64,000 nt of DNA from a virus: the UHGV virus genome UHGV-1368192. One strand, 5' to 3'. Shown here in pieces: positions 993 through 61,373 of this stretch. The notes under the pieces are model-generated. The model ran no database searches and was not told the origin of the DNA. It saw only the letters and a list, made by a program, of their open reading frames with translations. The first letter of the stretch is position 1. Every line of letters starts with the position of its first letter. The position numbers were made by a program, and so were the translations under genes.

Positions 993-1575
993 TAGCCTCC
1001 TTTCTAGGTTGACCAGGAATCCAAACTTGGCTACCCTGGATAAGGAGGCTGTTGCTGAGTACGTAGCTAGCTTCACGAGGAAGTATGCAGAGCCCGATAG
1101 TCTGGATATCTACGAAGACGAGGTAGAGATCAAGTCTTTCCGTGGCAGGCTACCTAAGGACTGCCTAAGGCTTGAGTCGGTCCACTTCGGTCGCATGCCC
1201 ATGAATGAGGTGAGGAGAAGCGGTAGGATCGGCAAGTACGAGTATTCCCTACGCAACGGCGTTATGCAGTGCGGCTTTGAGAAAGGCAAGATCGACATCA
1301 AGTATCTCGCTATGCCTGTCGACGAGGATGGCTTCCCCATGGTATATGAGGATGAGCTACTCATCGATGCTATCATAGCGTACATCAAGATGGATCAGTA
1401 CAAGCTCCTCTTCGACAACAATAAGATCAGCAGGGAGTCCTCTCATCAGGCACAGCAGGACTACTCATGGGCTGTTGGGCAGTACCTCGCATCACAGAGG
1501 ATACCATCAGCACAGGAGATCATTGAGATCGGCATGAGAGCAAGATTTTCTGACGTTGGTACGAGAAGGCGATGA
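970..1575 (+). CDS. hypothetical protein (201 aa)
   Basis: ORF overlaps the flanking genes, consistent with one operon. Confidence 0.5.
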   Translation: MNRYIGIDSLLSRLTRNPNLATLDKEAVAEYVASFTRKYAEPDSLDIYEDEVEIKSFRGRLPKDCLRLESVHFGRMPMNEVRRSGRIGKYEYSLRNGVMQCGFEKGKIDIKYLAMPVDEDGFPMVYEDELLIDAIIAYIKMDQYKLLFDNNKISRESSHQAQQDYSWAVGQYLASQRIPSAQEIIEIGMRARFSDVGTRRR

Positions 1576-4500
1576 AAGAGAAGGTTATCCGCCTAATGGC
1601 ACGAGGCATGGCGCAAGACCACGCTGAGGCCAGGGCATCAAACGATTTGGCTTATGAGCTGAGGAATATCCGCATTTCCTCAGACGGCAGCAACACGCTC
1701 TTCTCTATAAGCAGCATCAAGGGGACGGAGGCTAAGAGCTCTGTCCCCGGACGCGTTGTAGCTACCACTGTCATCGGTGACAAGGCTGTCATCCTCAGTA
1801 AGTACAAGAAGGACGGTATGGTCTTCGTCTTCGATGGTGAGAATATCAAGAAGATCTACGAGACGGAAATGAACCTGAGCGACAACGTAGATATGATCGG
1901 TGTCGTTGAGCGCGATGATATCGAGAAGGTCTACTGGGTTGATGGTGTCAATCCGCTGAGGTCACTGAACATCCACGACAAGCGTCTGGCTACCAATCCT
2001 AACGTCGACTACATTAACAACACCTGGTCACTATCTTTTGAGGAAAAGGTAAATGTGACACAGAGCTGGGGACGTGGATCAAAGCTGCATAGTGGTAACG
2101 TCACTTACGTCTTCACCTATTCCCTTATGCACGGCAAGGAGTCGAAGATCTTTGCTGAGTCTGATGTCTACTACATCACTCACTCTGATGGTCGTGGCGG
2201 CTCAGGTGAGGACATCATCAACTGCTCCTTTGATATTGAGATCACCGGTCTGGATCAGAAAGCTGACTTCGTCAATGTGTATAGGATCCTCAGGACTAGT
2301 GAGGGAGGTACGCCTGATGTACAGCGCGTACAGTCCGTTCCTGTCAAGGGCAACGGCGTAGAGTTCCATGACTATGGCCAGCCAGGCATCAGCATCGAGC
2401 CACAGGCTATCCTGTATCTCGGTAGCAACACCATCATCGCTTCTACTCTTGCTGCTAAGGACAACACTCTCTTCCTCGGCAACCTTTCTATCCCCGGCTT
2501 TAAGTTGTCTGAGGAAGAACAGAAGACGATCAAGGACCACTATGCTGCAGGCGGCATAACCTTCAACCCTGTCGATGTGGAGCCTTTCAGGGCTCGACAG
2601 GCAGGTAAGGGTCACAAGGATATCTCTGTGTTGATGCCGTATGAGCATTACCCTGTAGCTATTCAGCTTATCAGTAAGACAGGTCAGGAGTCTAACCCTG
2701 TGCCTGTCGGTGTGTTCATAGCACCTGACTCTCCCTCAAGGCTTGTAGTATCTCCTCCTCCTGTGGTAGGGGACTACGTGGGCTACAGGGTCCTCATCCA
2801 TTATCCATCGACGAAGGAGCGTAGGACAATCGCTAATGGCGTTCTCTCTCCTACCCTCTATACGGTAGCTGATAGGGAGGACGGTGTACCATACGCCTTC
2901 TCCTCATACTGCTTCAGGCCTATCACGCGCGATGAGCTGCTCCCAGAGAGTCTTGGTGATCTCACCGTGAATAAGTCTCTCTTCAGGAAGGAGGTGGACC
3001 AGCCGTTCTTCAAGTCAAGCTCCTCTACCGCTGGTCTTGCATCAGCTCAGGTAAGGGTGTGTGCTGAGATACAGACCTTCAATACCCCTGACATCCAGGA
3101 CTGCTACGATGAGGATATCCAGCTTCACGTGAAGACCCTTGGTGCTCCCATCGAGTCATACGTCTACAGAGATACAAGGGTTGAGGAAGGGAAGTGGAGT
3201 GACATCTCTACTACATACGACCATGAGTCTCTCCTCAGGCCCTCATTGTCTACCACCATAGGATCAACGACGAGGCTTGAGCCAGGCTCTAAGATCCTGA
3301 AGGTGTCAAGCCTTGAGACCGACATGGTGGGTGTGGCTATTCCCCTCTTCTCTACCAAGGACACATCTGGCGGTAAGGTTGTCGAGAATACCACAGCACG
3401 ACTCTCTGTGTATGGTAGGGCAACGACAGACGAGAGGATACTCAATGGCAAGACCTCTACATGGAGGAATGGTGGAGCATCACTGCAGAAGGTTGATGGT
3501 GACACGTACCTTGGCGAGGTGGACAAGATCCTCCCGGCTATCAAGGGTGGCGTGTCGCGTTTCCTCGGTGTTGATGGTAAGGGACAGGCTAGGTCAGTAT
3601 CTAGTATCAGCGGTCCCACGAGGATGAAGTACGGCACGTCAGACCACTTCGTCGTCAAGCTCAGCAAGGATGACCTTGTCACAAACGAGGTCAAGCGTGA
3701 TGGTCTTCCTACTAGCGCTGTGAGTGACTTCATGAATACCATGGAGGGCAGATGGTTCACACATGACTTCGATCCTCAAGGTGGTGCTAACCTCGGTGGT
3801 GCTAAGAACTGTTGGGGACCTGTCTCTATCGAGTTCCACGATGGTGACTTCCCTGATACGTCCTACGCTGATATAGCTACCACCTTCTTCTCGAGTGTTG
3901 AGGAAGTGAGAGAGAAGCTGTTCCCAAGCTGGCTTACCCTTGACGCTGATAACGGCAAGGAGACGTTCTACTATGCTACACCTCCCGGTGGTGTCTACTG
4001 GAACAAGCATGAGGCCATGGACGACAAGAAGGGGAAGATGCGCATCATCAGTCCATATACCAAGGACTCTGGTGATGTCATTGACTCTAACGGCGTACCA
4101 TTCAGGCATTCGCTCTACAAGACTGACGCTACCTCTGTAGGTCTATGGCTTGCTTTCGTGTCAAGAGGACAGATAGCTAAGGGTGTGGGATCATCAAGCA
4201 ACGACAGGGATAATCTGAGGAGGCTGATGAGAGAGATCCTCAAGGTAACAGCTGAGAAGCTCATGAGTAGGTACAACCAAGTTCCTGTCTCCTCAAAGAG
4301 TGTTGTCAAGGCTCCTCTTACCGGCTCAGTCCTTCCCATCGCTCTCATGACGAGAGAGGCTCCTGGGTATGACATCGACAGTCTCAGGTGGGAGTCCTAC
4401 TCTTACGTAACGCCCATTGCTAAGAGTGCTACCGGAGGAGGTGACACCTACTACCAGACGACAACGCTCTTCAAGACTATCCCTTCCTCAGAAGCTAATA

Positions 4501-5702
4501 AGGTGACTGATATCATTGATATTCCTCTCCTCACCAGGGTAAACCAGCTTGGTAGGTATGACAGGAACATCGGCATCAAGACACCGCAGGCTATGAGTAT
4601 GGACAACGTCAATAGGATGAACGATGTCTACAACGATAGGATGACCCTCAAGACGTACGACATCATCCCTGATTACATGCTTACGTCACATCACCCAGCG
4701 TCGTTCACCTGGAGTAAGACTAAGCAGAACGGAGAGTTCATTGACAACTACACGCACTTCAGTGGTGCATCTACAGCATCCCTTGATGGTATCTGTGGTA
4801 GTATCACTAGGATCCTCTCCTCATCAGACAGACTGTTCTTTGTACAGAGACAGGGCATAGGGCTCATCAACTACAACAGCAGAGTCCAGGTCCAAGCGTC
4901 TGATGGTGTGCCTATCGAGATCAGTAATAGTCGCAAGGTCGATGGCCACAGGTACATGTCTAAGGAGATCGGCACAGGTTCTCTGAGGAGGGTATGCCAT
5001 TCCGCATCGGCCCTCTATCTCCTTGACGACCGCACCAGCACGCTTTACAGCCTCTCTGACGGCTTATCTCCCATCTCTAAGCAGAAGTCTATGCAAGACT
5101 ATTTATCGGCCACCACAGGGGCTGTATTGCTCTCAGAGGGAGTTATGAATAGGATTCACGTCTGTACCAAGGATGAGGCGCTGTGCTACAATGAGGAGCT
5201 GCAGGCTTTTGAGTCCTTCTACGACTACAAGAAGATTGAGGAGATGTTCGTCCTTGGTCAGTCGGTCTACAGCTTGGCTTATGGGTATCTCTGGCATAAC
5301 GAGTCGAAGTATGGTGCAGGTCTGTACAACCAAGCTCTTGACTGGTACATCCACTACAGGGTCAATCCTGAAGGTGCAGGCGAGGATAAGATCTTCACCA
5401 ACCTCGACGTCCGTGGTGACACTTGGGATGGTGATAAGCTGATCACCCTTGACCTCACAGAGATGGACGTGTGGACGGAGTATCAGCGCACTATGGGCTA
5501 TGGGATTACCTTTGTAAAGAACTATCCATCAGTGATGAAGGAGAAGTTTAGGATTTACAGAATACAGATCCCAAGGGACGCGCAGAGCAAGTTCAAGATG
5601 GATCGTATCAGGAATCCATGGATGCACCTCAGGCTCCACTCTAATGGTGGCTTGCTCTACAGGAGCATCATTCACGATATAACTGTTCACTATTACGAGT
5701 GA
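1572..5702 (+). CDS. large virion protein, putative tail fibre or tailspike-like (1376 aa)
   Basis: Uninterrupted 4.1 kb ORF. Composition is rich in S/T/G/V/D/N as in beta-rich fibre proteins. ATGA overlap with the next gene. No catalytic motif recognised. Confidence 0.45.
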   Translation: MKEKVIRLMARGMAQDHAEARASNDLAYELRNIRISSDGSNTLFSISSIKGTEAKSSVPGRVVATTVIGDKAVILSKYKKDGMVFVFDGENIKKIYETEMNLSDNVDMIGVVERDDIEKVYWVDGVNPLRSLNIHDKRLATNPNVDYINNTWSLSFEEKVNVTQSWGRGSKLHSGNVTYVFTYSLMHGKESKIFAESDVYYITHSDGRGGSGEDIINCSFDIEITGLDQKADFVNVYRILRTSEGGTPDVQRVQSVPVKGNGVEFHDYGQPGISIEPQAILYLGSNTIIASTLAAKDNTLFLGNLSIPGFKLSEEEQKTIKDHYAAGGITFNPVDVEPFRARQAGKGHKDISVLMPYEHYPVAIQLISKTGQESNPVPVGVFIAPDSPSRLVVSPPPVVGDYVGYRVLIHYPSTKERRTIANGVLSPTLYTVADREDGVPYAFSSYCFRPITRDELLPESLGDLTVNKSLFRKEVDQPFFKSSSSTAGLASAQVRVCAEIQTFNTPDIQDCYDEDIQLHVKTLGAPIESYVYRDTRVEEGKWSDISTTYDHESLLRPSLSTTIGSTTRLEPGSKILKVSSLETDMVGVAIPLFSTKDTSGGKVVENTTARLSVYGRATTDERILNGKTSTWRNGGASLQKVDGDTYLGEVDKILPAIKGGVSRFLGVDGKGQARSVSSISGPTRMKYGTSDHFVVKLSKDDLVTNEVKRDGLPTSAVSDFMNTMEGRWFTHDFDPQGGANLGGAKNCWGPVSIEFHDGDFPDTSYADIATTFFSSVEEVREKLFPSWLTLDADNGKETFYYATPPGGVYWNKHEAMDDKKGKMRIISPYTKDSGDVIDSNGVPFRHSLYKTDATSVGLWLAFVSRGQIAKGVGSSSNDRDNLRRLMREILKVTAEKLMSRYNQVPVSSKSVVKAPLTGSVLPIALMTREAPGYDIDSLRWESYSYVTPIAKSATGGGDTYYQTTTLFKTIPSSEANKVTDIIDIPLLTRVNQLGRYDRNIGIKTPQAMSMDNVNRMNDVYNDRMTLKTYDIIPDYMLTSHHPASFTWSKTKQNGEFIDNYTHFSGASTASLDGICGSITRILSSSDRLFFVQRQGIGLINYNSRVQVQASDGVPIEISNSRKVDGHRYMSKEIGTGSLRRVCHSASALYLLDDRTSTLYSLSDGLSPISKQKSMQDYLSATTGAVLLSEGVMNRIHVCTKDEALCYNEELQAFESFYDYKKIEEMFVLGQSVYSLAYGYLWHNESKYGAGLYNQALDWYIHYRVNPEGAGEDKIFTNLDVRGDTWDGDKLITLDLTEMDVWTEYQRTMGYGITFVKNYPSVMKEKFRIYRIQIPRDAQSKFKMDRIRNPWMHLRLHSNGGLLYRSIIHDITVHYYE

Positions 5703-29894: not shown

Positions 29895-30710
29895 TTACTG
29901 CTTATCCAGGAGATCCCTTGCCTTGGTCATCACATCCTTGGCATCTGCGTGTGGCTTCCCGGTCTCTCCATCAACACGCTTTCGGAAGATCTCGTCCCAC
30001 TCTCGCCTGGTGTAAGTGTAGACAACCTTTGTTGCCGTGCCTAAGGGGAGGTGCTTCCTTGCGTAATCCGTTGGGACTCCCTTCCTGAGGAGAGAGAAGT
30101 AGTACTCCTCATCTATCTTGAACTTCCTCAGGCTATCCTCCCATCTCTCAGTATCCTCATCGGCAAACACTGTCTTGAGGATAGGCAGGTCAGGTCTCTT
30201 CTTAGTGCCGTAGGCTATGAACCTCGTACTGCTCTCTGCTATGGCGTTAGGGGATACCCTATTCAGCTCTCGCGAGATATCGATAGATGTAACGCACTCT
30301 ATGGTGTACCTGCGGATGGACTCCGGTACTTTCTCTGCAGGGATCCTCCATTCCTCACGTAGGTACTCCTTGTCGTTCTCCTCATAAGCCTGACCGTTGC
30401 TGGCCACATAGGCTATAACGCCAGGATCGCCAAAGACGTATCCAGGTTGCTCGCTCATATTGACATGCTCAAATACCACATGGGTAAACTTGCTAAGGCG
30501 TGACGCTATATGGGCATGCTCTGGTGGTATCATGTAGTACCTCGTGGTATGCCTGAACATAGACCTATGCCCAGAGCGCCACAAATGCTCGCAGAGACGC
30601 TTATTATCCTTCGGTGAGGAATCGTAGCACACGCTCGCACATCGTGAGATATGGGCCTCTAAATCGCTCCCACACTCGTAAAGAGCGACTGATGGTTCTA
30701 AAATGATCAT
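29895..30710 (-). CDS. ThyX-like (flavin-dependent thymidylate synthase fold) protein
   Basis: N-terminal SxCYDS, GHRSMFRH and C-terminal ARKHLPLGTATKVVYTYTRREW align by eye to ThyX blocks. The canonical RHR(x7)S motif is not evident. Confidence 0.45.
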   Translation of the reverse strand: MIILEPSVALYECGSDLEAHISRCASVCYDSSPKDNKRLCEHLWRSGHRSMFRHTTRYYMIPPEHAHIASRLSKFTHVVFEHVNMSEQPGYVFGDPGVIAYVASNGQAYEENDKEYLREEWRIPAEKVPESIRRYTIECVTSIDISRELNRVSPNAIAESSTRFIAYGTKKRPDLPILKTVFADEDTERWEDSLRKFKIDEEYYFSLLRKGVPTDYARKHLPLGTATKVVYTYTRREWDEIFRKRVDGETGKPHADAKDVMTKARDLLDKQ

Positions 30711-31492
30711 GATTCTACTATATGGGGTTTAACTGATGATGCCGGTTGAGGAAGAGATGAAGGCATAAGGTCGTAACGTTTCCTATCTAAACGGTAAGGG
30801 TGTATAGAAGCGCTAAGGGTCGGGGAACCTTTCAATGCTTGCTCTGTGGTGGCTACATACGTATAGCCGTTCTCGTTAGTATTGATAACCTGCACGTCAA
30901 TACTCTGCGGTACAAGCTCCTGAGGAATAAGGGCAACAACAATAGCATCCTTTGGCTCCTCCTCAAGCACAGGTACAATGCCTACTTCCTCCTCAAGAGA
31001 GATAGTATTAGCTTCCTCAATGGGATCCACCACGTCACGCATGTAAGCCTGATAAAGCCGTACTCGGTTAACTCTGGACATAAAAATAGGATTAACCCAG
31101 TAACGGCGTATCTGCCGGCGAGCAATTACAGACTTCTCGATCAGCTCACGCAAGCCACGATACACAGAGTTGAGAGCAATACCCTCTTCCTCAGAAATAA
31201 CCTTTGCGTCGAGCACTACACAGTTTTCCTCATCAAGACCCTGTGAGAGCCTCGCAAAGATGATCAGCGCTGATGGGGATAGTCTAGACATTACCTGGAA
31301 TCCCTTAGGGTAGACACGCACGTGCTGTGATGTGTCTACCATCTCTTTCTGTCGGAGAGCTATATCCACATCAGTTATCTCCCCTTCGCCTGTGACGACG
31401 TGGAGATCCTTCTGTGTGGTGTACCTATACCTGTTCTGAAAGTCTGCCTCAAGGGCTAAGTCCATGGCGAATGGACATCTTGGAGTTGCCAT
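30707..31492 (-). CDS. putative winged-helix DNA-binding protein (regulator or replication initiator-like)
   Basis: LSPSALIIFARLSQGL...VYRGLRELIEKSVIARR resembles a winged-helix recognition helix plus wing. Palindromic operators and a TACCTTTG box lie upstream. Confidence 0.4.
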   Translation of the reverse strand: MATPRCPFAMDLALEADFQNRYRYTTQKDLHVVTGEGEITDVDIALRQKEMVDTSQHVRVYPKGFQVMSRLSPSALIIFARLSQGLDEENCVVLDAKVISEEEGIALNSVYRGLRELIEKSVIARRQIRRYWVNPIFMSRVNRVRLYQAYMRDVVDPIEEANTISLEEEVGIVPVLEEEPKDAIVVALIPQELVPQSIDVQVINTNENGYTYVATTEQALKGSPTLSASIHPYRLDRKRYDLMPSSLPQPASSVKPHIVES

Positions 31493-32879: not shown

Positions 32880-33266
32880 TTATTCCTCTGGCATCAGTAC
32901 TTCTGCATCCCAGTATAGTTGATCGTTGTTGAGTAGCTCGTATAGGCTCTCACCTGTACTCTCAAGTACCCAGCATCCTCTAGAGAATACTACGACATCA
33001 TCGATCTCTCTTGACATCGCTGTGCCGTCTCTATCCATCCACTGATAGCCACCTACGATTCTGCATCCTTCAAAGACTAGCTTACCGTTTAAGTCTATTC
33101 CTGTGTATTGATAGACATAGGCTACGCGCGCTACGTCTGTTTCCTCACTCATGTATGGACCTAGGATCAGCCAATCTATGCCGTTATCATCATGGCAAGC
33201 TGATCCAGTGACCCACTCATTCCTGGCGTTGTACCCGCCAAATAGTATATCTCTTTCTTCTTTCAT
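32880..33266 (-). CDS. YopX-like protein
   Basis: YTGIDLNGKLVFEGCRIV resembles the YopX core YTGLKDKNGKEIYEGDIV. Confidence 0.35.
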   Translation of the reverse strand: MKEERDILFGGYNARNEWVTGSACHDDNGIDWLILGPYMSEETDVARVAYVYQYTGIDLNGKLVFEGCRIVGGYQWMDRDGTAMSREIDDVVVFSRGCWVLESTGESLYELLNNDQLYWDAEVLMPEE

Positions 33267-33329
33267 CTTGGTTATAGTGGTTGAGGAAGAGAGAAAGATG
33301 TTTCCACCTACTCTCCCTTCCTCAGGTGA

Positions 33330-33977
33330 TTATTCTCCGGTAAGACTCTCAGCTACCTGATACAGCCTGTATCGCTTAGCAAAGTCCTTAACCATATTTA
33401 GGTCGTTGTCAGTGTAGATAACCTCCTTGACGGTATCTTCTGAGTCTAGACAGCTCTTTATCTCTAGGTAATACCTTCCGGTAGCACCTTGTGAAATGAG
33501 GAAGTACAGCTCACCATCCTTGCTCAGGCTGAGAATCTTTGCGTACATGCATGACTTCAAGCCTGACGTAGTCGGTAGCTCTACATCCTTCCAGTTCAGT
33601 GGTGGCATCATACTCTCTAGGACTTCCGACTGAGTGACTCTTCGATATATCAAGCTGTTAATGTTATTAGCTCGATCATTCTCCGCTAGCTCCATTAACT
33701 CACCAATATCACCTCTCGTTTCTGCGAATGGTTCAAGTTCATACTCTTCCCCATTGTCCTTCACGATTACGATATTGAGCTTTGATGGTGTACTCATGTC
33801 TCCTCTTACTATTTGATAGTATGAAGTCTCATTCTTGGAGAGCCGGATGTTGAGTGCCCTAATAAACCTGATCATCTCGATCTTCCCGGTTGCCTCAGGA
33901 TTGATGGGGTTCGCTATCTTATCGACTATCTTCCAGTCTAGTGGTTGTTTTGTCTTGTATAATCCTATCTTGTTCAT
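33330..33977 (-). CDS. hypothetical protein (215 aa)
   Basis: ORF with 11 nt spacing to the next gene. Confidence 0.5.
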   Translation of the reverse strand: MNKIGLYKTKQPLDWKIVDKIANPINPEATGKIEMIRFIRALNIRLSKNETSYYQIVRGDMSTPSKLNIVIVKDNGEEYELEPFAETRGDIGELMELAENDRANNINSLIYRRVTQSEVLESMMPPLNWKDVELPTTSGLKSCMYAKILSLSKDGELYFLISQGATGRYYLEIKSCLDSEDTVKEVIYTDNDLNMVKDFAKRYRLYQVAESLTGE

Positions 33978-35052: not shown

Positions 35053-35676
35053 TTACTTAATATCGATTGGTACATCTAGCTGCTTGAGGAAGATCCTACC
35101 CTTGTAGGCCTCATAGCAAGCCTTCACTGCCTCTTCCTCAGCCATATCGAATGAGGAGAGGAATTGGAATTGAGGAAAGCGATGATCCATCCAGCGCTTA
35201 TTTCCGTGAATGAAGTCCTCAAGATTAGCATAGCCCTTACCTACCAGCTGCATCCTGAAGAGTGCAGGCTCGCAGACATACATAGGCCAGTCGTAAGGCT
35301 GTCCTGGCTTTCCCTTGCAGCCTCTGTTGGCCCATTCCTCCCAGACAAGGTAATCCTCCAGCTCTTCCTCAAGAAGGTCTCTGTGGACCTTGTAGAAGGC
35401 CTGAGAGAGTCTTCCCTCGCAGATAAGCCCTTGAGGAAAGTTAGAGGTGTTGAGGAAGAGGATATCTGGATTCCTCTCCTTAGGGAAGAGGGCTTTGCAA
35501 GCCGCCATATACTCCTCTACAGAGCTATAGTTGCCTGGCGTGGTCCACTTCCCGATGCTTAACTTCTTAGTGTCGTCATTGCGCATAGCAATGAGCTGTG
35601 TCGTGACGTATAGTCGCGCGCGTCTTAGTCCTCCGTCCATATTAGTAGTCTGAAAATACGAAGCCTGGCTTGCCAA
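35053..35676 (-). CDS. ArdA N-terminal-domain-like protein
   Basis: RLYVTTQLIAMRNDDTKKLSIGKWTTPGNYSSVEEYMAACKAL matches the ArdA N-terminus VYIANLGKYNEGELVGAWFTFPIDFEE. Confidence 0.5.
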   Translation of the reverse strand: MASQASYFQTTNMDGGLRRARLYVTTQLIAMRNDDTKKLSIGKWTTPGNYSSVEEYMAACKALFPKERNPDILFLNTSNFPQGLICEGRLSQAFYKVHRDLLEEELEDYLVWEEWANRGCKGKPGQPYDWPMYVCEPALFRMQLVGKGYANLEDFIHGNKRWMDHRFPQFQFLSSFDMAEEEAVKACYEAYKGRIFLKQLDVPIDIK

Positions 35677-36235
35677 TCACTTCGTTGTCAACGTATGTGT
35701 AGTCACTGATGAAGAGGTCTCTCTTGAAGGCATCAAGGTCGAAGTAGAAGTATGGTGATATATTCTCTACCTTCTCGATCTCTTCTCCGTAGCACTCATT
35801 CATTAGCTCCTCTGCGAAGTCCTCTTCGCTGTAGTACTGACCTTTGTATCGGTCCTCAAACTTCGATGCGTCCACTGAGCTTACACTCCAAGGGTTGTTG
35901 TGGTAGTTGTGGATGTAAGCCTCAAAGGCCTCATGTAGATCCTCATCCAGCTCGTCAAACGCATCCTTGGTGGTGAAGAAGGACCAATCGATCTCGTTAC
36001 TGCCTTCCTGATAGATGCGGTCATCATCGATGCCCTCTACCTCAAGGATCTTAACCTCGAGTTCTCCTTCCTCATCGTCCCCATAGTATTCCTCTAGGAG
36101 ATCTTCTACATCTTCCCAGTAGTCTAGATCCTTGAGTTCGATCTCAAGACCTCTCTCATTGGGATCTTCAAGGTATCGCTTGCTTGTGGTCACTCGTACC
36201 TTGGATTCATAGATCTGTTCTCTGATAGTTGCCAT
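35642..36235 (-). CDS. ardA: ArdA anti-restriction protein (C-terminal domain clear)
   Basis: FEDRYKGQYYSEEDFAEELMNECYGE followed by YFYFDLDAFKRDLFISDYTYVDNE...GFVF matches the ArdA ..YIDYQAYGRDLDLSGTFISTNHGIFEIV. Confidence 0.6.
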   Translation of the reverse strand: MATIREQIYESKVRVTTSKRYLEDPNERGLEIELKDLDYWEDVEDLLEEYYGDDEEGELEVKILEVEGIDDDRIYQEGSNEIDWSFFTTKDAFDELDEDLHEAFEAYIHNYHNNPWSVSSVDASKFEDRYKGQYYSEEDFAEELMNECYGEEIEKVENISPYFYFDLDAFKRDLFISDYTYVDNEVIGKPGFVFSDY

Positions 36236-36734: not shown

Positions 36735-37601
36735 CTATTCTCTTAGTGCGTCTTCTTTTGACATAGACCTTAAAGCAATACCGTTGCGTGCGGCAAATCG
36801 TATGGGCTCATCTGTACCCGGGAAGTACACGTTACACACATTGTCCCACTCCCTATCCTCCAGGATCCTCTTGACCGCAAGGTCATTCTCCTGTAGCCTC
36901 GGGATGAACTTAGGCCCGAAGGGTCCGTGTCCTATATACCACATGCCAGAAACACAGGACATCTTGATCTCCTCATCGGACATATCTGCCATCCTGTATA
37001 TGACTGCGTGATCGTTGTAGGCGTTAGTAATCTCCTTAGTCAGTCCGGACATCAGGCCTCGCAAGTACGCAACCTTATGCTTAACTGATACCTGACTGCT
37101 GGAAATCACGTCACCCCTATTAGATACCGCTATGGTATTAAGGACACGGAAACCTCTCTGACCTTCCTTGATGTATAGTAGTGCGCTCTTCTGTAGCTTG
37201 GTGAAGGCGTGCTCATCAAAGACAGTTAGTGTGTCCGTCATCATCCTTTCCTCACGCCTGTGTACCCCAACCAAAACACCATAGGCAAACCACTCCCTCT
37301 CAGATTCTCTCTCGATCATCAGATAAGAAAGAGGAAGAGTAACAGAAAAAGAAGGAAGGAAAAGACCATCACGCCTTTCCTCAATCTCTTCTGGCATGAC
37401 TGCCACTGGTGTCTGTATTGATCCCAACATAGGGATAGGTACATAGGAACAGGTCTTGAGCCTCGTGGGTTCTCCATACATGATACGTCCCCTACGGAGC
37501 CCCTCCTCAGTGAGGAAGGTGCAACCGTTAGCGTCCCTCAATGGTATAGGACCTTTCTCTGCCGTCATCACAACGGTGGATGCTTTATATCCTCTTCGCA
37601 T
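36735..37601 (-). CDS. hypothetical protein (288 aa)
   Basis: ORF only. No clear motif. Confidence 0.5.
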   Translation of the reverse strand: MRRGYKASTVVMTAEKGPIPLRDANGCTFLTEEGLRRGRIMYGEPTRLKTCSYVPIPMLGSIQTPVAVMPEEIEERRDGLFLPSFSVTLPLSYLMIERESEREWFAYGVLVGVHRREERMMTDTLTVFDEHAFTKLQKSALLYIKEGQRGFRVLNTIAVSNRGDVISSSQVSVKHKVAYLRGLMSGLTKEITNAYNDHAVIYRMADMSDEEIKMSCVSGMWYIGHGPFGPKFIPRLQENDLAVKRILEDREWDNVCNVYFPGTDEPIRFAARNGIALRSMSKEDALRE

Positions 37602-38622
37602 ATATGTCCTCGATAGAGTTCACTTCTTCAGCGTTGATCTCTTTGTAGTGTCTAACGCCTGAGGAGAGATAGTATTCAAGCTCTGCAGCGACCTTACGCC
37701 ACGATGGTACGCTGTGATCACCGATAGAGTAACCTGTGCTACCATCCTTCGTCTGGCTGAACTTAAATGCTAGAGGTCGTGGCGTTCCGTTGTTACGCAC
37801 CACGATAAAGTGGAAGTCGTCAAGCTCATAGTCCTTGAACTGCTCATGCTGATTCATCCTAGCCCTGATGATATCATAGTACATCTGAGCTTGAATGCCG
37901 TAGTTCCATTCGATGACTGACTCTGGGAAGTCATCTTCTACCTTGCTGGTGGTCTTGAGGTCAATGATCCTCACAAGCTTCTTAGCGTGGTCCACAGTGA
38001 TGATGTCAGCCATACAGCGCAATCCTACACGGCCCATCTTAGCTGTGAACTTCAGCTGGTAGAAGATCTCACCGTCGAAGGGTGGTACCTCCAGGACCTT
38101 TGATACACCTGTGTTAGCTCGTAGGGCATTCACACACGCCATAGCCTTATCCAGCTGGTCCTGGGTGATGATGTTCTTACCTTGCGTCTTCCTCACAGCG
38201 TCAAAGTACTCAGCACAGCCGTGTACGTTCTTCAGTCGTGAGGACTTGTACCGATCATCGATGTAGTACTTACACTCAATGCATGCCTTGTGTATCTCTT
38301 CCTCAGGAACTTCTACCACCTTACTATAAGTGGTTGAGGAGAGAAGAAGGTCTACAACGTCCTTTAATTTCCCTGATGGCACATTGTCTTCCTTTCCTAC
38401 TACATAGCGCTCAGGGAACTCCTCTGGCGCTGTGAAGAGGCAATCGACTAACGAACCGAAGGTTAGTGATGCAGATGTGACCTTGTCGTCTAGGTTGTCG
38501 ATCCTCCCTATACCTTCCCTGAGGAAGCGAGAGATCTTACTATAAGACAAAGCCGGATCCGCACGGTAGGTATCCTCGCTTACGTCCCAAGCAAGGTCCT
38601 TGAAGTTCGGATGGTTACTCAT
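37585..38622 (-). CDS. PD-(D/E)XK exonuclease (YqaJ or RecB-family-like)
   Basis: N-terminal ALSYSKISRF...SLTFGSLVD. ADIITVDHAKKLVRIIDLKTTSK provides the D..D/ExK motif. IQAQMYY provides the QxxxY motif. Confidence 0.55.
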   Translation of the reverse strand: MSNHPNFKDLAWDVSEDTYRADPALSYSKISRFLREGIGRIDNLDDKVTSASLTFGSLVDCLFTAPEEFPERYVVGKEDNVPSGKLKDVVDLLLSSTTYSKVVEVPEEEIHKACIECKYYIDDRYKSSRLKNVHGCAEYFDAVRKTQGKNIITQDQLDKAMACVNALRANTGVSKVLEVPPFDGEIFYQLKFTAKMGRVGLRCMADIITVDHAKKLVRIIDLKTTSKVEDDFPESVIEWNYGIQAQMYYDIIRARMNQHEQFKDYELDDFHFIVVRNNGTPRPLAFKFSQTKDGSTGYSIGDHSVPSWRKVAAELEYYLSSGVRHYKEINAEEVNSIEDIYAKRI

Positions 38623-41677: not shown

Positions 41678-42457
41678 TTACTTGATCTCTGCGGCTGGCT
41701 TAACTGCAGAGGGTTTCTTTTCTTCTTTCTTAGGAGGTTCCTCCATGGTCCCTTCCTCCTCATAGTAGGCACGTGAGATATCGAGGACTGCCTGAAGGTC
41801 GTTGTCGATGTATCTCTCCTCAAACATACCTACAGGTGACTTAGCTGGGATGGTGAAGCCATGACGCTTAGTCCTGCGAGTGATGAAGCGATAGACAGGT
41901 TCGTCTTCCTCATCATCAAACTCTACGTCCGTGAAGAGGGTGACGGTGACAAGCTCCAGCGGGTTAGACTGCTTGTCTACCAGCTTACCTACTGAGGAGA
42001 GCTTGTACTCTGGAAATTCCAGGGTGGTGTCGTCATCCTTCTCGACGTGCATCATCAGGACTACCTGTAGATCCGCGCGCTGCTTAGAGAGGAAGTAGAG
42101 TAACTCCTGGAAGTTAGCCGCCATACGGTTGAACTTGTCGTAGCCCTTCTCCCCTGCGCGGATAGTGTTGAAGCTCTCGTTACGCATCAGATAGATCGTA
42201 TCGTCAATGACGATGGTCTTGATATGCTTGAGAGGACCATCAGCCTTGGTAGAGGCGATGAACTTCATGATCTGGTGGTAGTCGTCGGTCTCTACGAAGT
42301 TGCGGTTCTGAGTGTTGAACTTCTTCTTGTAGCCACGGAAGGGGATGTCCTTCAATGGTACGACGTTGATGATTAGTGTCTCCTCAGGCCTGAGGTTGCG
42401 CATTGAGTAAGACTTGCCTGTACCAGTCTTACCAGCGACGATGATTGCTTTTGCCAT
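41678..42457 (-). CDS. P-loop ATPase (Sak4 or AAA_24-like recombination ATPase?)
   Basis: Walker A IIVAGKTGTGKSY. Walker B KTIVIDDTIY. Confidence 0.5.
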   Translation of the reverse strand: MAKAIIVAGKTGTGKSYSMRNLRPEETLIINVVPLKDIPFRGYKKKFNTQNRNFVETDDYHQIMKFIASTKADGPLKHIKTIVIDDTIYLMRNESFNTIRAGEKGYDKFNRMAANFQELLYFLSKQRADLQVVLMMHVEKDDDTTLEFPEYKLSSVGKLVDKQSNPLELVTVTLFTDVEFDDEEDEPVYRFITRRTKRHGFTIPAKSPVGMFEERYIDNDLQAVLDISRAYYEEEGTMEEPPKKEEKKPSAVKPAAEIK

Positions 42458-44215: not shown

Positions 44216-44736
44216 CTTAGTCGGTGTCTGATGTTCTTTACGTAGTGATATATGATACTCTTGAACTGTAGGTCTGCATCTACATGGGCTATCACCTTGT
44301 GCATTTGCAGTGGCTCTATGATCGTTCTGGTACTCCTGTACTTCGATATAGCCTCTCTGAGGGACCATATCGAGAACTGTGGGTACTTCTGCCTGAACGC
44401 TCGGATTGAGGAAGACAGAGAGACTATATTGTCCTGCTTGCCGGGCTTGTAGTGGAAGAGTAGCTCTCTTGCGAGCTCTACCTCATCCATCTCCCTCACC
44501 CCATGCTTCATAGCCTTCCAGATGATAGCGTCAGTTTCAGCTGTTGCAAAATATGCACCATCTTCCTTGACGATATTCACGATGTGTCCTATCTCATTGT
44601 AGAGATGCTCCCCGGTCCCTTCTTGGGCGGTGAGTATCCTGCTACTGATGAGTAGTGCCATCTCCTGATAGGTCAGACCTATGCTCTCAAGGTAAGCATC
44701 ATTGAATATGATTTGTCCGAATGAAATGTCTGTCAT
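44212..44736 (-). CDS. hypothetical protein (174 aa)
   Basis: ORF with 4 nt overlap to the helicase gene. Confidence 0.5.
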   Translation of the reverse strand: MTDISFGQIIFNDAYLESIGLTYQEMALLISSRILTAQEGTGEHLYNEIGHIVNIVKEDGAYFATAETDAIIWKAMKHGVREMDEVELARELLFHYKPGKQDNIVSLSSSIRAFRQKYPQFSIWSLREAISKYRSTRTIIEPLQMHKVIAHVDADLQFKSIIYHYVKNIRHRLR

Positions 44737-47052: not shown

Positions 47053-47512
47053 CGCCAGCGACGATTACCATGGGGAGCACGATGAGAATGAAGAACATGA
47101 TAGCGTGGATCACGTGGATCTTATTGCTCTTCTCTACCCACATCTTGTCGGTGATACAGAAGAAGCGGTCGAGCTTACGCTTCCAGTCTTCTACATAGAA
47201 CTCGCCGTTGTAGTACTTCTTGAAGCGACGTACTTCACCGTCTTGTCCTGCGATCCAGTACTTCTCTGTGCCATCTTCCATCTTGGCCACAAGACCAAGG
47301 CGACCATCTGGCCACTGCTTAGGCTCGACACCAGTCTGGTTGACCCAGCTGAAGTATACCTCCTGGTTGAGCTTAGCGCCATTAGGATCGATCTGCTCTA
47401 CCTTGATATCCTCAGCCTTCAGAGGGATGAACCCTTCACGCTTGACAGTTGTACCGTCAGGACCTGCAGCACTGATAGGGTCCTCGATGACCCTTACATA
47501 TTTCTTTGCCAT
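47018..47512 (-). CDS. hypothetical protein with a C-terminal transmembrane helix (164 aa)
   Basis: C-terminus IHAIMFFILIVLPMVIVAGGGAWWL. Confidence 0.5.
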   Translation of the reverse strand: MAKKYVRVIEDPISAAGPDGTTVKREGFIPLKAEDIKVEQIDPNGAKLNQEVYFSWVNQTGVEPKQWPDGRLGLVAKMEDGTEKYWIAGQDGEVRRFKKYYNGEFYVEDWKRKLDRFFCITDKMWVEKSNKIHVIHAIMFFILIVLPMVIVAGGGAWWLRSIFN

Positions 47513-47578
47513 ACTCTATATAATGAAGTGATACCCTTTGGCTCTTCCTCAGGGACTATGGCCACAAAGTTAACACTT

Positions 47579-48637: not shown

Positions 48638-48737
48638 CTTGGTTTACGTCTTATACTAAATTAACCTCACCCTCCTCATTGGGTATTAGTCTTTGAGGAA
48701 GATGAGGTTGGTTATACTTCTGTTGTTAGTCTCTGTC

Positions 48738-49139: not shown

Positions 49140-49188
49140 ATTTCCTGTGGTTTATAAATGAGAATAGCCGACCTCATGGCCGGCTGTG

Positions 49189-49260
49189 TACCCCGAGATG
49201 GAATCGAACCATCATCGTAAGTTTAGGAAACTTATGTTCTATCCGTTGAACTATCGGGGC
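49189..49260 (-). tRNA. tRNA-Arg (anticodon CCT)
   Basis: The minus strand reads GCCCCGA-TA-GTTC-AACGGATA-GAAC-A-TAAGT-TTCCTAA-ACTTA-CGAT-GATGG-TTCGATT-CCATC-TCGGGGT-A. This gives a complete cloverleaf of 72 nt. The GGTTCGATTCC T-arm is present. No CCA is encoded. Confidence 0.8.
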
Positions 49261-49787: not shown

Positions 49788-50350
49788 TGGTCTATATTAT
49801 TAGAACTTGATACTATTTCTAGTCTCAAGTAAAACTTATGGATACATCATCCCCTAGGCAATTTAATAGGTATTGAGGAAAGACATATAAGTAGAAGAAC
49901 ATATTATTCCTTTCCTCATTAAACGCGCGCGCGAGGCGCATTTTCGGGCGAACCCGAACCTAATTAAATTGCGCATAGGGGGATGGCTTCTTAGCCCCAA
50001 GGGTGAGGTACCACTATGGTATCCAATCCTCAACCTCTCGGCTGTCTCTCTTCCTCAGGCAACACGTACCCAATGTCGATTGACACTCTACTCTTTATCT
50101 AATCAGGCCTGAGTAGTAGTATTAGCTCTCTTTAGGTCTGGCCAAACCTAGACGGCGGATCACTTTACCAGCCGGCCACCTATCCGTCAATTTTATATCC
50201 CCTGGGTTACTACCCAAAGCTCCTGGTGGCGTTCATTCTCCCACAGGACGTTCGATGTACACCGTTGAATGGGAGGGGAATCTCCAACTATCCACCGCCC
50301 TTGGGATGCCGTACACTTCTGTACCTCCTAGGCGGCCTCATTGCTGGGCC
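49788..50350 (-). ncRNA. candidate large structured non-coding RNA or long structured leader (ORF-free, GC-elevated)
   Basis: About 560 nt carries no ORF above 60 aa on either strand. It contains many local hairpins, for example TTGAGGAAAG..CCTTTCCTCA at 49873-49918. An exact TACCTTTG box at 50355-50362 points leftward into it. A tRNA lies about 530 nt downstream on the same strand. Confidence 0.3.
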
Positions 50351-50354
50351 ACCA

Positions 50355-50362
50355 CAAAGGTA
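50355..50362 (-). promoter_or_regulatory. Bacteroidetes-type -7 box TACCTTTG directing leftward transcription into the ORF-free region
   Basis: The plus strand reads CAAAGGTA. No coding sequence follows for about 560 nt. Confidence 0.4.
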
Positions 50363-50416
50363 TGAAGAATATCTGGGACTTGAGGAAGAGAGAGTAGGTG
50401 AATCTGGCTGTTAGTC

Positions 50417-53301: not shown

Positions 53302-53511
53302 AGTTGTTTCTTTTGATTTGCCCCTGAGGAGAGGATAGTGTCCCTTCCTCAGGATCTATTACTTCTTCTTTGTTCTGCCCTCGCCACCGCACAGATGAAT
53401 GTGAGGATAACAAAAGCTCTTACTTCTGTGGGGTATCCACTCGCCAGGATCAAATAAATGCCCTGTATGAAGAGATAAAGCCTTATGAGGTCTATCATAC
53501 TACTCATACCG

Positions 53512-60933: not shown

Positions 60934-61340
60934 CCCCCATTCTTTTAGGCCGTAAAGGTCCTAAGGCGTAATGCGCTAAGAATACCTACTGGTTATACTA
61001 TCTTCTCCTCAGGAGCTTTTCCTCAAGCCCCTGTTAGCTTGCTAGCTCATGCTAGCTCTTATATGTGTGTGTTGGTCTTATGGTATAGCGTCCTATGGTA
61101 AAGCGCAGGGTCTGATGTTCATATAGTACGCCGCCTTCCCTATTTCTCTCTTCCTCAGACGACAATGCCACCACCTTACAAATGGCAGGCCGTACAAAGA
61201 GAACGGAAGGTAAGACGTACTATGTGAACACCCCTACTACAATCGGCAGGTGCGAAGCCGGAGTTTCCAACAGCTCCACACGCCGGTCGTATTAACCCTG
61301 TACTCGGCTATAGGCGCGTAGCACTTATAGACCGCTTATA

Positions 61341-61368
61341 CAAAAAAGACCTCCCTAAGGAGGTCTTT
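61341..61368 (-). terminator. rho-independent terminator (minus strand)
   Basis: Read on the minus strand: AGACCTCC ttag GGAGGTCT followed by TTTTTTG. It lies directly downstream of the stop of 61374..61676. Confidence 0.75.
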
Positions 61369-61373
61369 GCGCT

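Follow-up and report, generated by a model that had tools for sequence, protein, structure and literature searches.

The closest described counterparts of the DNA word analyzed here are Chi sites, the DNA-uptake sequences, HIP1, and the words read by DNA translocases. Known Chi sequences are contiguous, asymmetric, and purine/G-rich, and those of AddAB-type enzymes known so far are 5-7 nt long. KOPS (GGGNAGGG, read by FtsK) and SRS (GAGAAGGG, read by SpoIIIE) are purine-rich 8-mers read by a DNA translocase and are strongly skewed with respect to the replication strand. DUS of Neisseria and USS of the Pasteurellaceae, 9-12 bp long, belong to competent bacteria, whose uptake machinery reads them; they occur about once per kb, on both strands and mostly within genes, and their inverted copies form intergenic hairpins. 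HIP1 (GCGATCGC), a palindromic octamer of cyanobacteria and their phages, is associated with methyltransferases and is a feature of the host genome. In phages P1 and LLS, no octamer is commoner than Chi, and the octamers next in frequency overlap Chi by 7 nt (PMC12315714). Among lambdoid phages, the Chi-rich genomes are those without a recombination module of their own and without a RecBCD inhibitor (PMC12315714). Chi-rich phages with fixed ends are strongly biased in the orientation of the sites (20 to 3 in LLS and 32 to 0 in MD8). Bacteroides has AddAB, and the Chi of the B. fragilis enzyme is stated as unknown (PMC2887965).

The window analyzed here is a stretch of 64,000 nt (64 kb) from a phage genome of roughly 90 kb. 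It can be classed by its sequence as that of a crAss-like phage (Crassvirales): its proteins match the Pfam families crAss_MUZ (2.2e-140), Crass_capsid (3.9e-142), CARG1, CARGO2, Ring_1, Ring_2, and AuxCP, and the gene order parallels gp43-gp54 of crAss001. The octamer TGAGGAAG occurs in the window in 99 exact copies, against 4.1 expected from dinucleotide shuffles, and the excess over random expectation is ∼25-50-fold. We know of no denser selected oligomer in any phage. The density is 1.55 copies/kb, with 47 copies on the plus strand and 52 on the minus strand. Plus-strand copies start at 330, 384, 419, 674, 2510, 3182, 3899, 6334, 7081, 7575, 10210, 10687, 11569, 11986, 12181, 12493, 14104, 14854, 16777, 17996, 18857, 19007, 20162, 21044, 21104, 27004, 30747, 33282, 33497, 35085, 35451, 37511, 38520, 43143, 44407, 45524, 45560, 48694, 48938, 50381, 50563, 51488, 53004, 57926, 58064, 59086, and 60834. 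Those on the minus strand start at 581, 4483, 6166, 6542, 10341, 11629, 13631, 13986, 15745, 16806, 18332, 21437, 21572, 25262, 25525, 25777, 28210, 28255, 28315, 30123, 31012, 31186, 33317, 34761, 35133, 35364, 36067, 36498, 38188, 38298, 40579, 41154, 41235, 41265, 41905, 44038, 45717, 46190, 47544, 48502, 50050, 50470, 51865, 53344, 56069, 56219, 57019, 57875, 61150, 62664, 62847, and 63278. TGAGGARR is present in 202 copies and TGAGGA in 295, and the sister words TGAGGAGA, TGAGGAAA, and TGAGGAGG number 57, 22, and 24 genome-wide. The 9-mer CTGAGGAAG, put at roughly twenty occurrences by the initial annotation, is found 37 times, versus 1.2 expected.

Ninety of the 99 copies lie fully within called CDSs, non-coding DNA making up 7.4% of the window; one of the other nine (44407) is within an alternative ORF. 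The emphasis first placed on intergenic copies was therefore misleading. About half of the copies occupy the codon phase xxT GAG GAA Gxx. Coverage is even, more so than Poisson (variance/mean 0.12 at 8 kb, P=0.006), and the spacing on each strand is ∼1.3 kb. An absolute-strand effect was absent (Fisher P=0.66, with no skew after allowing for gene orientation), and neither an orientation polarity nor an origin-marking strand switch of the word was visible in the 64 kb. TGAGGAAG thus resembles KOPS and SRS as a purine-rich 8-mer and is unlike them in having no strand skew.

The enrichment exceeds what the encoded proteins and codon usage produce. With both held fixed in a synonymous-codon shuffle, sense copies within CDSs number 56 against 6.5 expected (8.6-fold), and antisense copies 34 against 3.9 (8.7-fold); a ∼9-fold excess persists in synonymous-codon and codon-order shuffles alike. 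This shuffle had been named beforehand as the refuting check, and the excess survived it. The proposal that Glu-Glu codons make up just a part of the signal and that a functional explanation is needed was borne out, and the enrichment is stronger than the initial annotation had it. When all 8-mers are ranked against a null that keeps amino acids and codon usage, the top two places go to TGAGGAAG (z=23.6) and its reverse complement (z=17.8). A 5-mer-based Markov model yields just 31 copies, and the excess outlasts phase-aware models up to order 5, by which an origin in low-order word avoidance was rejected. In its main (cheapest) codon phase, TGAGGAAG fills 72% of the synonymous opportunities in sense and 74% in antisense, and overall 64% and 49%, respectively; one-off control words fill 2-13%. 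A reshaping of the protein sequences by the word was rejected, as EE and FL dipeptides are at no higher level here than in other crAss-like phages. A long or dispersed repeat of the REP/MITE type was likewise rejected: no 14-mer occurs more than three times, the flanks carry an information content of ∼0, and one 20-mer occurs twice.

Among relatives, wobble positions within the copies are kept in 94.1% of cases, compared with 72.6% for the same codons elsewhere, and a second region repeats this result (92.2% versus 80.0%). Antisense copies are conserved at wobble positions as strongly as sense copies, and the footprint of conservation covers exactly positions 1-8 of the word. In a 15.7-kb comparison, 21 of 37 site columns are common to at least 12 of 14 genomes, each of which has 21-28 copies. 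TGAGGAAG, accompanied by the weaker sister word TGAGGAGA, is a discrete DNA recognition word of 8 bases, and selection has placed it at essentially every site that the proteins permit, evenly and on both strands. Because antisense copies are enriched and conserved equally to sense copies, the word acts in DNA and not in mRNA.

These results largely refute the view that the word is without function of its own and arises from codon-pair bias, from Glu-Glu-rich proteins, and from the avoidance of other short words such as GGAGG and TCGA. The preferred codon phase would fit such an origin, and GGAGG/AGGAGG and TCGA are indeed depleted in the window, which favors TGAG over CGAG or GGAG. However, the excess survives the codon shuffles and Markov models, it is equal in antisense, where avoidance of GGAGG in mRNA is irrelevant, and the dipeptides concerned are not elevated. 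The additional wobble constraint with its exact 8-base footprint also argues against a by-product, as do outgroups of similar EE content that lack the bias, and we regard this explanation as extremely improbable.

The few intergenic copies include a 43-nt hairpin at 33282-33324 (minus strand, -28.4 kcal/mol) with arms TGAGGAAGGGAGAG and CTCTCTTCCTCA, which carries one copy per strand (33317-33324 on the minus and 33282-33289 on the plus strand). Gene 33330-33977 has its stop codon 5 nt ahead of the hairpin, and the ATG of gene 32880-33266 comes 15 nt after the hairpin's end, with no U-tract following the hairpin. Across 11 relatives the hairpin hardly varies, even though identity of the flanking protein drops to 57-62% and 3 of the 11 have another gene in place of the downstream one. 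The 'YopX-like' label given to this downstream gene found no confirmation in Pfam, PHROGs, or PDB sequence searches. Site 33302-33326 (minus strand) reads CCTGAGGAAGGGAGAGTAGGTGGAA and lies 36-60 nt upstream of the ATG at 33266; a site of the same type at 50379-50402 (plus strand) reads CTTGAGGAAGAGAGAGTAGGTGAA. The 20-mer shared by the two, TGAGGAAGRGAGAGTAGGTG, has exactly two occurrences versus 0.02 expected. The first (TGAGGAAGGGAGAGTAGGTG, 33305-33324, minus strand) makes up the 5′ arm of the 43-nt hairpin together with the beginning of its loop and is kept in 11 of 11 relatives spanning the site, with a single G-for-A change in one of them (L150). The second (TGAGGAAGAGAGAGTAGGTG, 50381-50400, plus strand) is inverted relative to the first, ∼17 kb apart, and precedes, on the transcribed (minus) strand, a -7 box of the Bacteroidota type (TAccTTTG, 50362-50355) by ∼20 nt; it is identical in another relative, L138.

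Three hairpins listed in the initial annotation proved real as well. That at 48661-48712 (minus strand, -24.6 kcal/mol) has a 16-bp stem of CTTCCTCA and TGAGGAGG, is intergenic, and includes the plus-strand copy 48694-48701; it is partly kept in L138, with both arms altered. At the 3′ end of an ORF-free stretch, the hairpin at 49873-49918 (minus strand, -14.0 kcal/mol) pairs the one-off variant TGAGGAAAG with CTTTCCTCA. In L138 its arms are the canonical TGAGGAAG and CTTCCTCA, a concerted two-sided change by which pairing is kept. The intergenic hairpin at 53323-53354 (minus strand, -19.6 kcal/mol; CCTGAGGAAGGGA...TCTCCTCAGG) includes the minus-strand copy 53344-53351, lies upstream of the ATG at 53301, and differs in L138 by one loop base. 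The hairpin reported at 61015-61037, on the other hand, is weak (-9.6 kcal/mol). The remaining sites are single minus-strand copies. CCCTGAGGAAGAGCC at 47544-47551 follows a TAnnTTTG-type -7 box at a distance of ∼15 nt, precedes the ATG at 47512 by 32 nt, and is kept in L138. CCTGAGGAAGAGAG at 50050-50057 lies in the ORF-free, GC-rich stretch, where an Rfam search returned no family, and its L138 orthologue is TGAGAAAG, with one base changed. TCTGAGGAAGAGAG at 61150-61157 lies in the 430-nt non-coding stretch 60941-61373. All coordinates and sequences listed at the outset were accurate, including those at 47541-47554, 53343-53354, 50046-50059, and 61146-61159. A genome-wide excess of hairpin pairing was rejected: inverted pairs no more than 70 nt apart number 55, against ∼47 estimated from the motif density.

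The initial annotation had suggested a binding site for a regulator, a promoter element, or an RNA processing or translation signal. For the bulk of the copies, it is highly improbable that the word is a promoter element of the phage RNA polymerase, a classical operator, or an RNA-processing or translation signal. Several copies do precede start codons by 15-60 nt, the conservation of one hairpin is exceptional, and one 20-mer adjoins a promoter-like box. Nevertheless, the location of ∼90% of the copies within genes in both orientations, the equal enrichment and conservation of antisense copies, and the lack of Shine-Dalgarno usage argue against these readings as a general explanation. The leaders of this phage are A-rich, and the motif is seldom within 40 nt of a start codon; a role as Shine-Dalgarno sequence or ribosome-binding site was rejected on these grounds and on the equal antisense enrichment. 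As intrinsic terminators, the motif stems are strong, but the sequence that follows them is ACCACTATAACC and similar, with no U-tract, and hairpins followed by T-runs elsewhere in the window (e.g., 61368-61345) do not contain the word. A regulator site or an RNA/DNA hairpin function is possible for just a handful of intergenic elements, and the few intergenic hairpins may be regulatory elements in their own right or a word abundant anyway being put to a second use.

What reads the word in DNA can be approached through the comparison with Chi. We tentatively favor, at clearly less than even confidence, a Chi-like signal for a helicase-nuclease that acts from DNA ends. Such an enzyme, most likely of the AddAB or RecBCD type and from a putative Bacteroidota host, would read the word in unwound single-stranded DNA while degrading linear phage DNA from an end or break, and on meeting it would shift from destruction to recombination and repair. 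Ends arising from injection, restriction, CRISPR cutting, or a collapsed fork could thereby feed recombination-dependent replication. Properly oriented copies recur at intervals of ∼1.3 kb either way, so that rescue would come within ∼1 kb of any end.

The enrichment, selection, near-saturation, and even coverage on both strands all suit a Chi-like role. As in the Chi of P1, LLS, and MD8, the word is a contiguous, asymmetric octamer (it differs from its own reverse complement) that is G/purine-rich and tops the octamer count, and the runner-up octamers of the window overlap it by 7 nt; the ∼25-50-fold excess over random expectation is a further feature in common. The statistics match those of Chi-rich P1, where Chi is also present on both strands (15 and 12 copies in the first 50 kb, computed directly) and fills 41% of the synonymous opportunities in sense and 44% in antisense, compared with 49-64% for TGAGGAAG. 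A-rich, SD-less leaders and TAnnTTTG boxes point to a Bacteroidota host.

Several observations speak against a Chi-like role. TGAGGAAG differs from every known Chi sequence, it is longer than the known Chi of AddAB-type enzymes, and its density is three times that of any described Chi-rich phage. Unlike LLS and MD8, this phage shows no polarity of the word; the best-studied relative, crAss001, is packaged with fixed direct terminal repeats, and other Crassvirales, such as crAss002, are permuted, a genome type in which Chi in both orientations would be expected, as in P1. Unlike the Chi-rich lambdoid phages, it carries recombination genes of its own, a PD-(D/E)XK/DUF3799 exonuclease (37585-38622) and an AAA_24 ATPase (41678-42457), both identified by Pfam, although the lambdoid rule may not transfer. 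Any selected octamer would give the same statistics, whatever its reader. A Chi site is recognized by the RecBCD, AddAB, or AdnAB enzyme of the host, with attenuated nuclease activity and loading of RecA, and is over-represented and co-oriented with replication in the host chromosome; no host genome was found for this phage in the searches described below.

The distribution of the word bears on the identity of its reader. The bias is present in every tested relative of one isolated crAss-like clade of ∼49% GC (47-50%), within which the helicase is 85-92% identical, falling to ≤41% in the next relatives. It is absent from the nearest outgroups, which have 32-34% GC, homologous primase and helicase genes, and a similar EE content, and from three other crAss-like phages. 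It was likewise absent from ∼1.4 Mb of sampled bacterial and metagenomic DNA and from ∼230 other viral contigs sampled; L402 appeared mildly enriched at first sight and was rejected, its top words being unrelated. Ninety-five bacterial fragments (∼30 of them from Bacteroidota) average 0.035 copies/kb. In inverted-pair scans of viral and metagenome collections, of which human-associated DNA is a small part, none of the at least 120 metagenome loci listed was dense (maximum 0.39 extra copies/kb), and the dense ones among the at least 120 viral loci listed were three loci of the clade itself. In a scan of viral contigs for triple direct repeats, tandem protein repeats of unrelated viruses swamped the result. 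No paper mentioning TGAGGAAG in such a role was found in a literature search.

A bias of the whole host genome, acquired by the phage through replicating and recombining in that background, would be driven by DNA uptake, as for DUS and USS, or by a repair- or methylation-linked process, as for HIP1. The density of TGAGGAAG (1.5/kb), its presence on both strands, and its copies in coding phase match these three words. With HIP1, TGAGGAAG shares the octamer length, a preferred phase in coding sequence, over-representation beyond codon usage, and conserved orthologous positions; its inverted copies make intergenic hairpins, as those of DUS and USS do in terminators. The jump in GC content from 32-34% to 47-50% suggests adaptation to a new host. 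However, pair frequency varies with the square of density, so a host as dense as the phage should dominate the inverted-pair scans, and among the loci listed no bacterium dense in the word was found; the low average of the bacterial fragments also speaks against such a bias. Inverted pairs in the window do not exceed the density expectation, uptake sequences bring no gain to a phage, here of a lytic-type clade, and TGAGGAAG, so far specific to this phage clade, is asymmetric where HIP1-type words are palindromic. A host-wide bias is decidedly unlikely.

Other searches also failed to link the clade to a host. The muzzle protein had no match in 185,579 bacterial and archaeal genomes, and an anticodon-arm scan with the phage tRNA-Arg(CCU) gave 95 matches, close to chance level, and no host; the true tRNA matches, no more than 68% identical, belonged to Clostridia, Bacilli, and Acidobacteria. 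Homologues of the DUF4494 protein of the phage were found within the clade only, and no host of the clade is reported in the literature searched.

The even, ∼1.3-kb spacing of the word, serving both strands equally, would also suit a replication-priming signal, required on the template by a Toprim (DnaG-type) primase or a primosome loader at Okazaki-fragment spacing on both strands. The phage encodes a DnaB-type helicase and a protein with a weak match to a Toprim-type primase (Pfam E=0.0099, below the curated cut-off), and a clade-specific word would be in keeping with a co-evolving enzyme specificity. Known primases, however, recognize 3-5 nt rather than 8, the outgroups have the homologous genes without the word, and there is no origin-marking strand switch in the 64 kb, which makes priming very unlikely.

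A somewhat unlikely alternative to a Chi-like signal is an array of sites for a sequence-specific DNA-binding protein encoded by the clade, bound as monomers to the duplex 8-mer in either orientation along the whole genome. Such an array might organize, compact, mark, or protect the phage DNA or activate transcription or replication globally, and the conserved 20-mers and hairpins would then be high-affinity or regulatory versions of the site. The enrichment regardless of orientation, the even coverage, and the sharp 8-bp footprint all agree with this, and the abrupt onset in one isolated clade is what a clade-specific reader protein would produce, with no other dense organism or virus among the ∼240 viral, 95 bacterial, and 120 metagenomic loci listed. 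Extended versions, the 20-mers, are kept at two intergenic sites, and a promoter adjoins one of these. As annotation is lacking for most proteins of the early region, there is ample room among them for an unrecognized DNA-binding protein. However, no candidate protein was found: the 'winged-helix' label of ORF 30707-31492 was not upheld, as Pfam, PHROGs, PADLOC, and PDB sequence searches gave no match to this ORF. To our knowledge, an exact 8-bp monomer specificity without flanking preference is unusual for HTH-type proteins, and we know of no phage whose coding sequence is saturated with binding sites of a nucleoid-type protein.

Searches of Pfam, PHROGs, PADLOC, and PDB sequences for an enzyme that writes or reads the word covered ∼50 of the ∼70 called ORFs of the window and 10 larger ORFs from ∼17 kb of additional genome of relatives, and revealed no methyltransferase, nickase, or annotated sequence-specific DNA-binding protein. 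This bears on the idea that the word is a target of DNA modification (methylation or hypermodification), more sites giving more protection from host nucleases. Type IIG, IIL, and III methyltransferases typically target asymmetric words of 6-8 bp, a range that includes the length of TGAGGAAG, and the phage does invest in anti-restriction, with an encoded ArdA-like protein and the depletion of TCGA. Among the ORFs screened, however, Pfam gave no match to a methyltransferase, a DpdA-type enzyme, or another modification enzyme. Moreover, modification targets are not normally enriched, and we are aware of no case of selection for more such sites; modification is very unlikely indeed.

The abrupt appearance of the word in one clade, and its absence from the other organisms and viruses sampled, would also fit a phage-autonomous mark of 'self', in which a helicase-nuclease or DNA-binding protein encoded by the clade, in place of the host enzyme, reads TGAGGAAG. 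Host DNA (∼0.04 copies/kb) would be degraded or silenced, and phage DNA (1.5/kb) spared and recombined, which would amount to a Chi-like self/non-self system belonging to a virus; we consider this unlikely. If the reader were phage-encoded, viral marking of own DNA by such a word would be novel. If it is instead the Chi of the host, as in the reading we tentatively favor, it would provide the missing Chi of a Bacteroidota AddAB (B. fragilis, PMC2887965) and would open that question to direct testing in vitro. Whatever its reader, a word of this kind biases the codon and k-mer statistics of the clade, and with them host prediction and binning; TGAGGAAG also offers a simple k-mer handle for finding the host of this uncultured crAss-like clade.

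The 9-mer CTGAGGAAG had been put at roughly twenty copies in the initial annotation, whose coordinates and sequences all proved correct when re-checked; that scale was too low, with 37 copies present in the window against 1.2 expected. Its core, the octamer TGAGGAAG, occurs 99 times where 4.1 copies are expected, and TGAGGA and TGAGGARR are found 295 and 202 times, respectively. Both DNA strands are equally served (47 and 52 copies), and no absolute-strand effect is left after allowing for sense preference (Fisher P = 0.66). Along the genome, the copies are spread more evenly than a Poisson process would give at 4–8 kb (variance/mean 0.12 at 8 kb, P = 0.006), and there is no genome-wide excess of inverted pairs. 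Nine of the 99 copies do not lie fully within called coding sequences (CDSs), non-coding DNA making up 7.4% of the window; one of the nine, at 44407, falls in an alternative ORF. The flanks are nearly free of information, with only a slight preference for Y at −1 and a slight purine richness in the tail, and no sequence of 14 nt is found more than three times in the window, which rules out a dispersed repeat element and indicates that TGAGGAAG is a short word.

Glu-Glu codons had been held to account for only part of the recurrence, and this is borne out by a ∼9-fold excess of TGAGGAAG over a codon-shuffle null. Synonymous codons were shuffled within each gene, with protein sequence and codon usage fixed, a control proposed in the initial annotation as a means of refuting the motif, and the enrichment survived. 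CDSs contain 56 sense and 34 antisense copies, compared to 6.5 and 3.9 after shuffling, so that the enrichment is equal in both orientations (8.6-fold and 8.7-fold, respectively). Scored against this null, TGAGGAAG and its reverse complement are the two top 8-mers (z = 23.6 and 17.8), and the sister word TGAGGAGA is third. Markov models predict 31 (5-mer-based) or 58 (6-mer-based) copies against the 99 observed, and models that take phase into account and treat coding sense and antisense separately likewise leave the count unexplained. The copies use the codon phases of lowest cost, which are xxT GAG GAA Gxx (Glu-Glu) for sense copies and xxC TTC CTC Axx (Phe-Leu) for antisense copies, and neither dipeptide is commoner than in other crAss-like phages; the pressure for TGAGGAAG is met through codon choice, with the proteins unchanged. 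Where the protein permits the word, 64% of sense positions (72% in the main phase) and 49% of antisense positions (74% in the main phase) are filled. Occupancy is 2%–13% for one-off control words and 33%–38% for TGAGGAGA. Some short words fall below the synonymous null: on the coding sense strand, the Shine-Dalgarno (SD)-like GGAGG (93 versus 169), AGGAGG (51 versus 99), and GAGGAGG (16 versus 48), as well as the palindrome TCGA (267 versus 408) and T-runs (TTTT, 32 versus 116). Although the avoidance of GGAGG or TCGA is genuine, it cannot produce the octamer, and TGAGGAAG is hardly credible as a side effect of biases in codons and short words.

Conservation was measured in a 15.7-kb alignment of 14 relatives with 79%–95% nucleotide identity. 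Where amino acids are unchanged, motif 8-mers are identical in DNA in 92% of comparisons, compared to 48% for other 8-mers of the same phase. In a one-to-one codon-matched comparison, wobble bases are retained at 94.1% inside copies and 72.6% outside, the values being 95.8% and 62% for GAA, the minor Glu codon. This extra conservation spans the eight motif positions exactly, returning to baseline at −1 and +9. Site columns common to at least 12 of the 14 genomes number 21 of 37 and the remainder turn over, yet despite this turnover each genome keeps 21–28 copies in the aligned region. Wobble retention is 92.2% versus 80.0% in a second region of minus-strand genes (23.3–44.0 kb, nine relatives). 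These data show TGAGGAAG to be a discrete 8-base recognition element at the DNA level, which is orientation independent, evenly spread, near-saturating, and selectively maintained.

The window belongs to the genome of a crAss-like phage. The crassvirus muzzle protein (1572–5702, Pfam E = 2e-140), cargo proteins 1 and 2, and ring proteins 1 and 2 were matched in it, and the major and auxiliary capsid proteins in a 95%-identical relative (Pfam); the crAss001 gp43–gp54 gene order is preserved. Genes run on the plus strand to 17.1 kb and on the minus strand from 17.2 kb on. Leaders are A-rich and without an SD sequence, and intergenic regions contain TAnnTTTG boxes, which we take to be gene expression of the Bacteroidota style. 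A phage-encoded tRNA-Arg with anticodon CCU lies at 49188–49260 (minus strand) and reads AGG, the commonest Arg codon of the phage (35%); its identity to any bacterial tRNA found with the same anticodon arm is at most 68%. An ArdA-like anti-restriction protein is encoded at 35642–36235 (minus strand; Pfam E = 2.3e-6, just above the curated cut-off), and in the in-clade relative L138 a gene neighboring this position matches the Pfam family Sequestin.

A promoter, regulator, or RNA signal had been suggested for the motif. As a general reading this does not hold, since most copies lie in genes and those in antisense match the sense copies in both enrichment and conservation; for the bulk of the copies, such a role is very unlikely. 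A ribosome-binding role was rejected in a phage without SD usage. The element matches no Rfam family. A terminator motif was also rejected: no U-tract follows the motif hairpins, and the word is not used by those terminator-like hairpins with downstream T-runs that a consensus scan finds.

A regulator or RNA role may apply to a few intergenic elements only. A 43-nt hairpin at 33282–33324 (−28.4 kcal/mol) is almost invariant in 11 relatives, though the upstream protein drops to 57%–62% identity. In three relatives (L144, L145, and L150), the downstream gene, the “YopX-like” ORF in the window, is swapped for unrelated sequence from locus position ∼10700 onward and the hairpin is kept; it may be a module boundary where genes get exchanged. 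Its first 20 nt, the 20-mer TGAGGAAGRGAGAGTAGGTG at 33305–33324 (minus), have one further exact copy, inverted, at 50381–50400 (plus), and both copies are kept across the clade. They flank ∼17 kb holding replication and recombination genes. The second copy adjoins a Bacteroidota-type −7 box, TAccTTTG at 50362–50355, which precedes an ORF-free, GC-rich stretch of ∼490 nt (∼49860–50354, minus strand). This stretch, which may be a phage non-coding RNA, has no Rfam match even at E ≤ 1, is kept in L138, and ends in a hairpin at 49873–49918, the arms of which are TGAGGAAAG/CTTTCCTCA in the window and TGAGGAAG/CTTCCTCA in L138, a joint change that keeps the pairing. The near-invariance of the first hairpin, the conservation of the 20-mer, and the paired arm changes indicate that these few elements are subject to their own structural or regulatory constraint. 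Nearby, the alternating run CGCGCGCGCG at 49925–49945 (minus) adds to the over-represented 7-mer GCGCGCG (7 versus 0.6 expected). Another non-coding stretch, of 430 nt at 60941–61373, contains one motif copy; it starts with a strong terminator-like hairpin and T-run (61368–61345, AAAGACCTCC...GGAGGTCTTT TTTTG).

No close match to the window was found among GenBank phages, and the best protein identity to described crassviruses is ∼32%. IMG/VR holds at least 14 relatives of ∼87–93 kb each. By helicase similarity the clade is isolated: among 5.8 billion proteins, its homologs are 85%–92% identical and the next nearest at most 41%. All in-clade genomes examined carry the TGAGGAAG bias, whereas the nearest outgroups (L139 and L140, ∼40% helicase identity) do not. 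GC content is 47%–50% in the clade, 32%–34% in these outgroups, and 35%–40% in other crAss-like phages examined; the large GC jump and the octamer bias arise on one and the same branch. The bias is also absent from crAss001, cr85_1, and Dulem virus 41 (antisense occupancy 2%–7%) and from ∼240 other viral loci among the matches listed. The abrupt, clade-restricted origin of the word favors a reading in which its copies form a site array for a DNA-binding protein specific to this phage clade; this is possible though rather doubtful. Screening of ∼50 of the window's ∼70 called ORFs, and of the larger ORFs (∼17 kb of extra genome) of relatives, revealed no methyltransferase, no nickase, and no protein annotated as binding DNA sequence-specifically. 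A priming signal is improbable and a modification target slightly more so.

A host-wide drive on the word, like DUS or HIP1, is also unlikely. Bacterial fragments (n = 95, ∼30 from Bacteroidota) average 0.035 copies per kb, and at least 120 listed metagenome loci, each with an inverted motif pair, are without phage-like bias. Because pair frequency scales with density squared, an abundant organism at phage-like density should have dominated such scans, and among the matches listed only own-clade contigs are dense. On these matches, the scans weaken a host-wide drive and are evidence against phage-like density across a host, not proof.

Among known systems, TGAGGAAG appears to behave most like Chi in phages that are rich in it. 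Chi outnumbers every other octamer in P1 and LLS, the octamers ranking next in frequency overlap Chi by 7 nt, and its ∼27- to 30-fold enrichment is unexplained by codon usage (PMC12315714). In the first 50 kb of P1, we computed 15 and 12 copies on the two strands and occupancies of 41% (sense) and 44% (antisense) of synonymous opportunities, a pattern like that of the window. Bacteroides has an AddAB, the Chi sequence of which is not known (PMC2887965). Based on these likenesses and on AddAB, we tentatively favor a Chi-like role, in which a helicase-nuclease of DNA ends, most likely the host's, would read TGAGGAAG in unwound phage DNA and then turn from degradation to recombination and repair. 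Against this, the phage carries its own exonuclease and ATPase genes, and in lambdoid phages own recombination genes go with a lack of Chi (PMC12315714). TGAGGAAG is also without polarity, in contrast to the strong polarity in fixed-end Chi-rich phages (crAss001 has fixed terminal repeats, whereas other crassviruses are permuted), and its density is three times that of any described Chi-rich case.

Selected, iterated genomic words such as Chi, DUS/USS, and HIP1 are known. In the literature searched, TGAGGAAG is not mentioned in such a role and the crAss literature describes no oligomer bias; the word, its carrier, and its density are new, as is its apparent confinement to a single viral clade. 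The high interest of TGAGGAAG lies in the directly testable predictions it gives, on the host, on a Bacteroidota Chi, or on a self mark owned by the virus.
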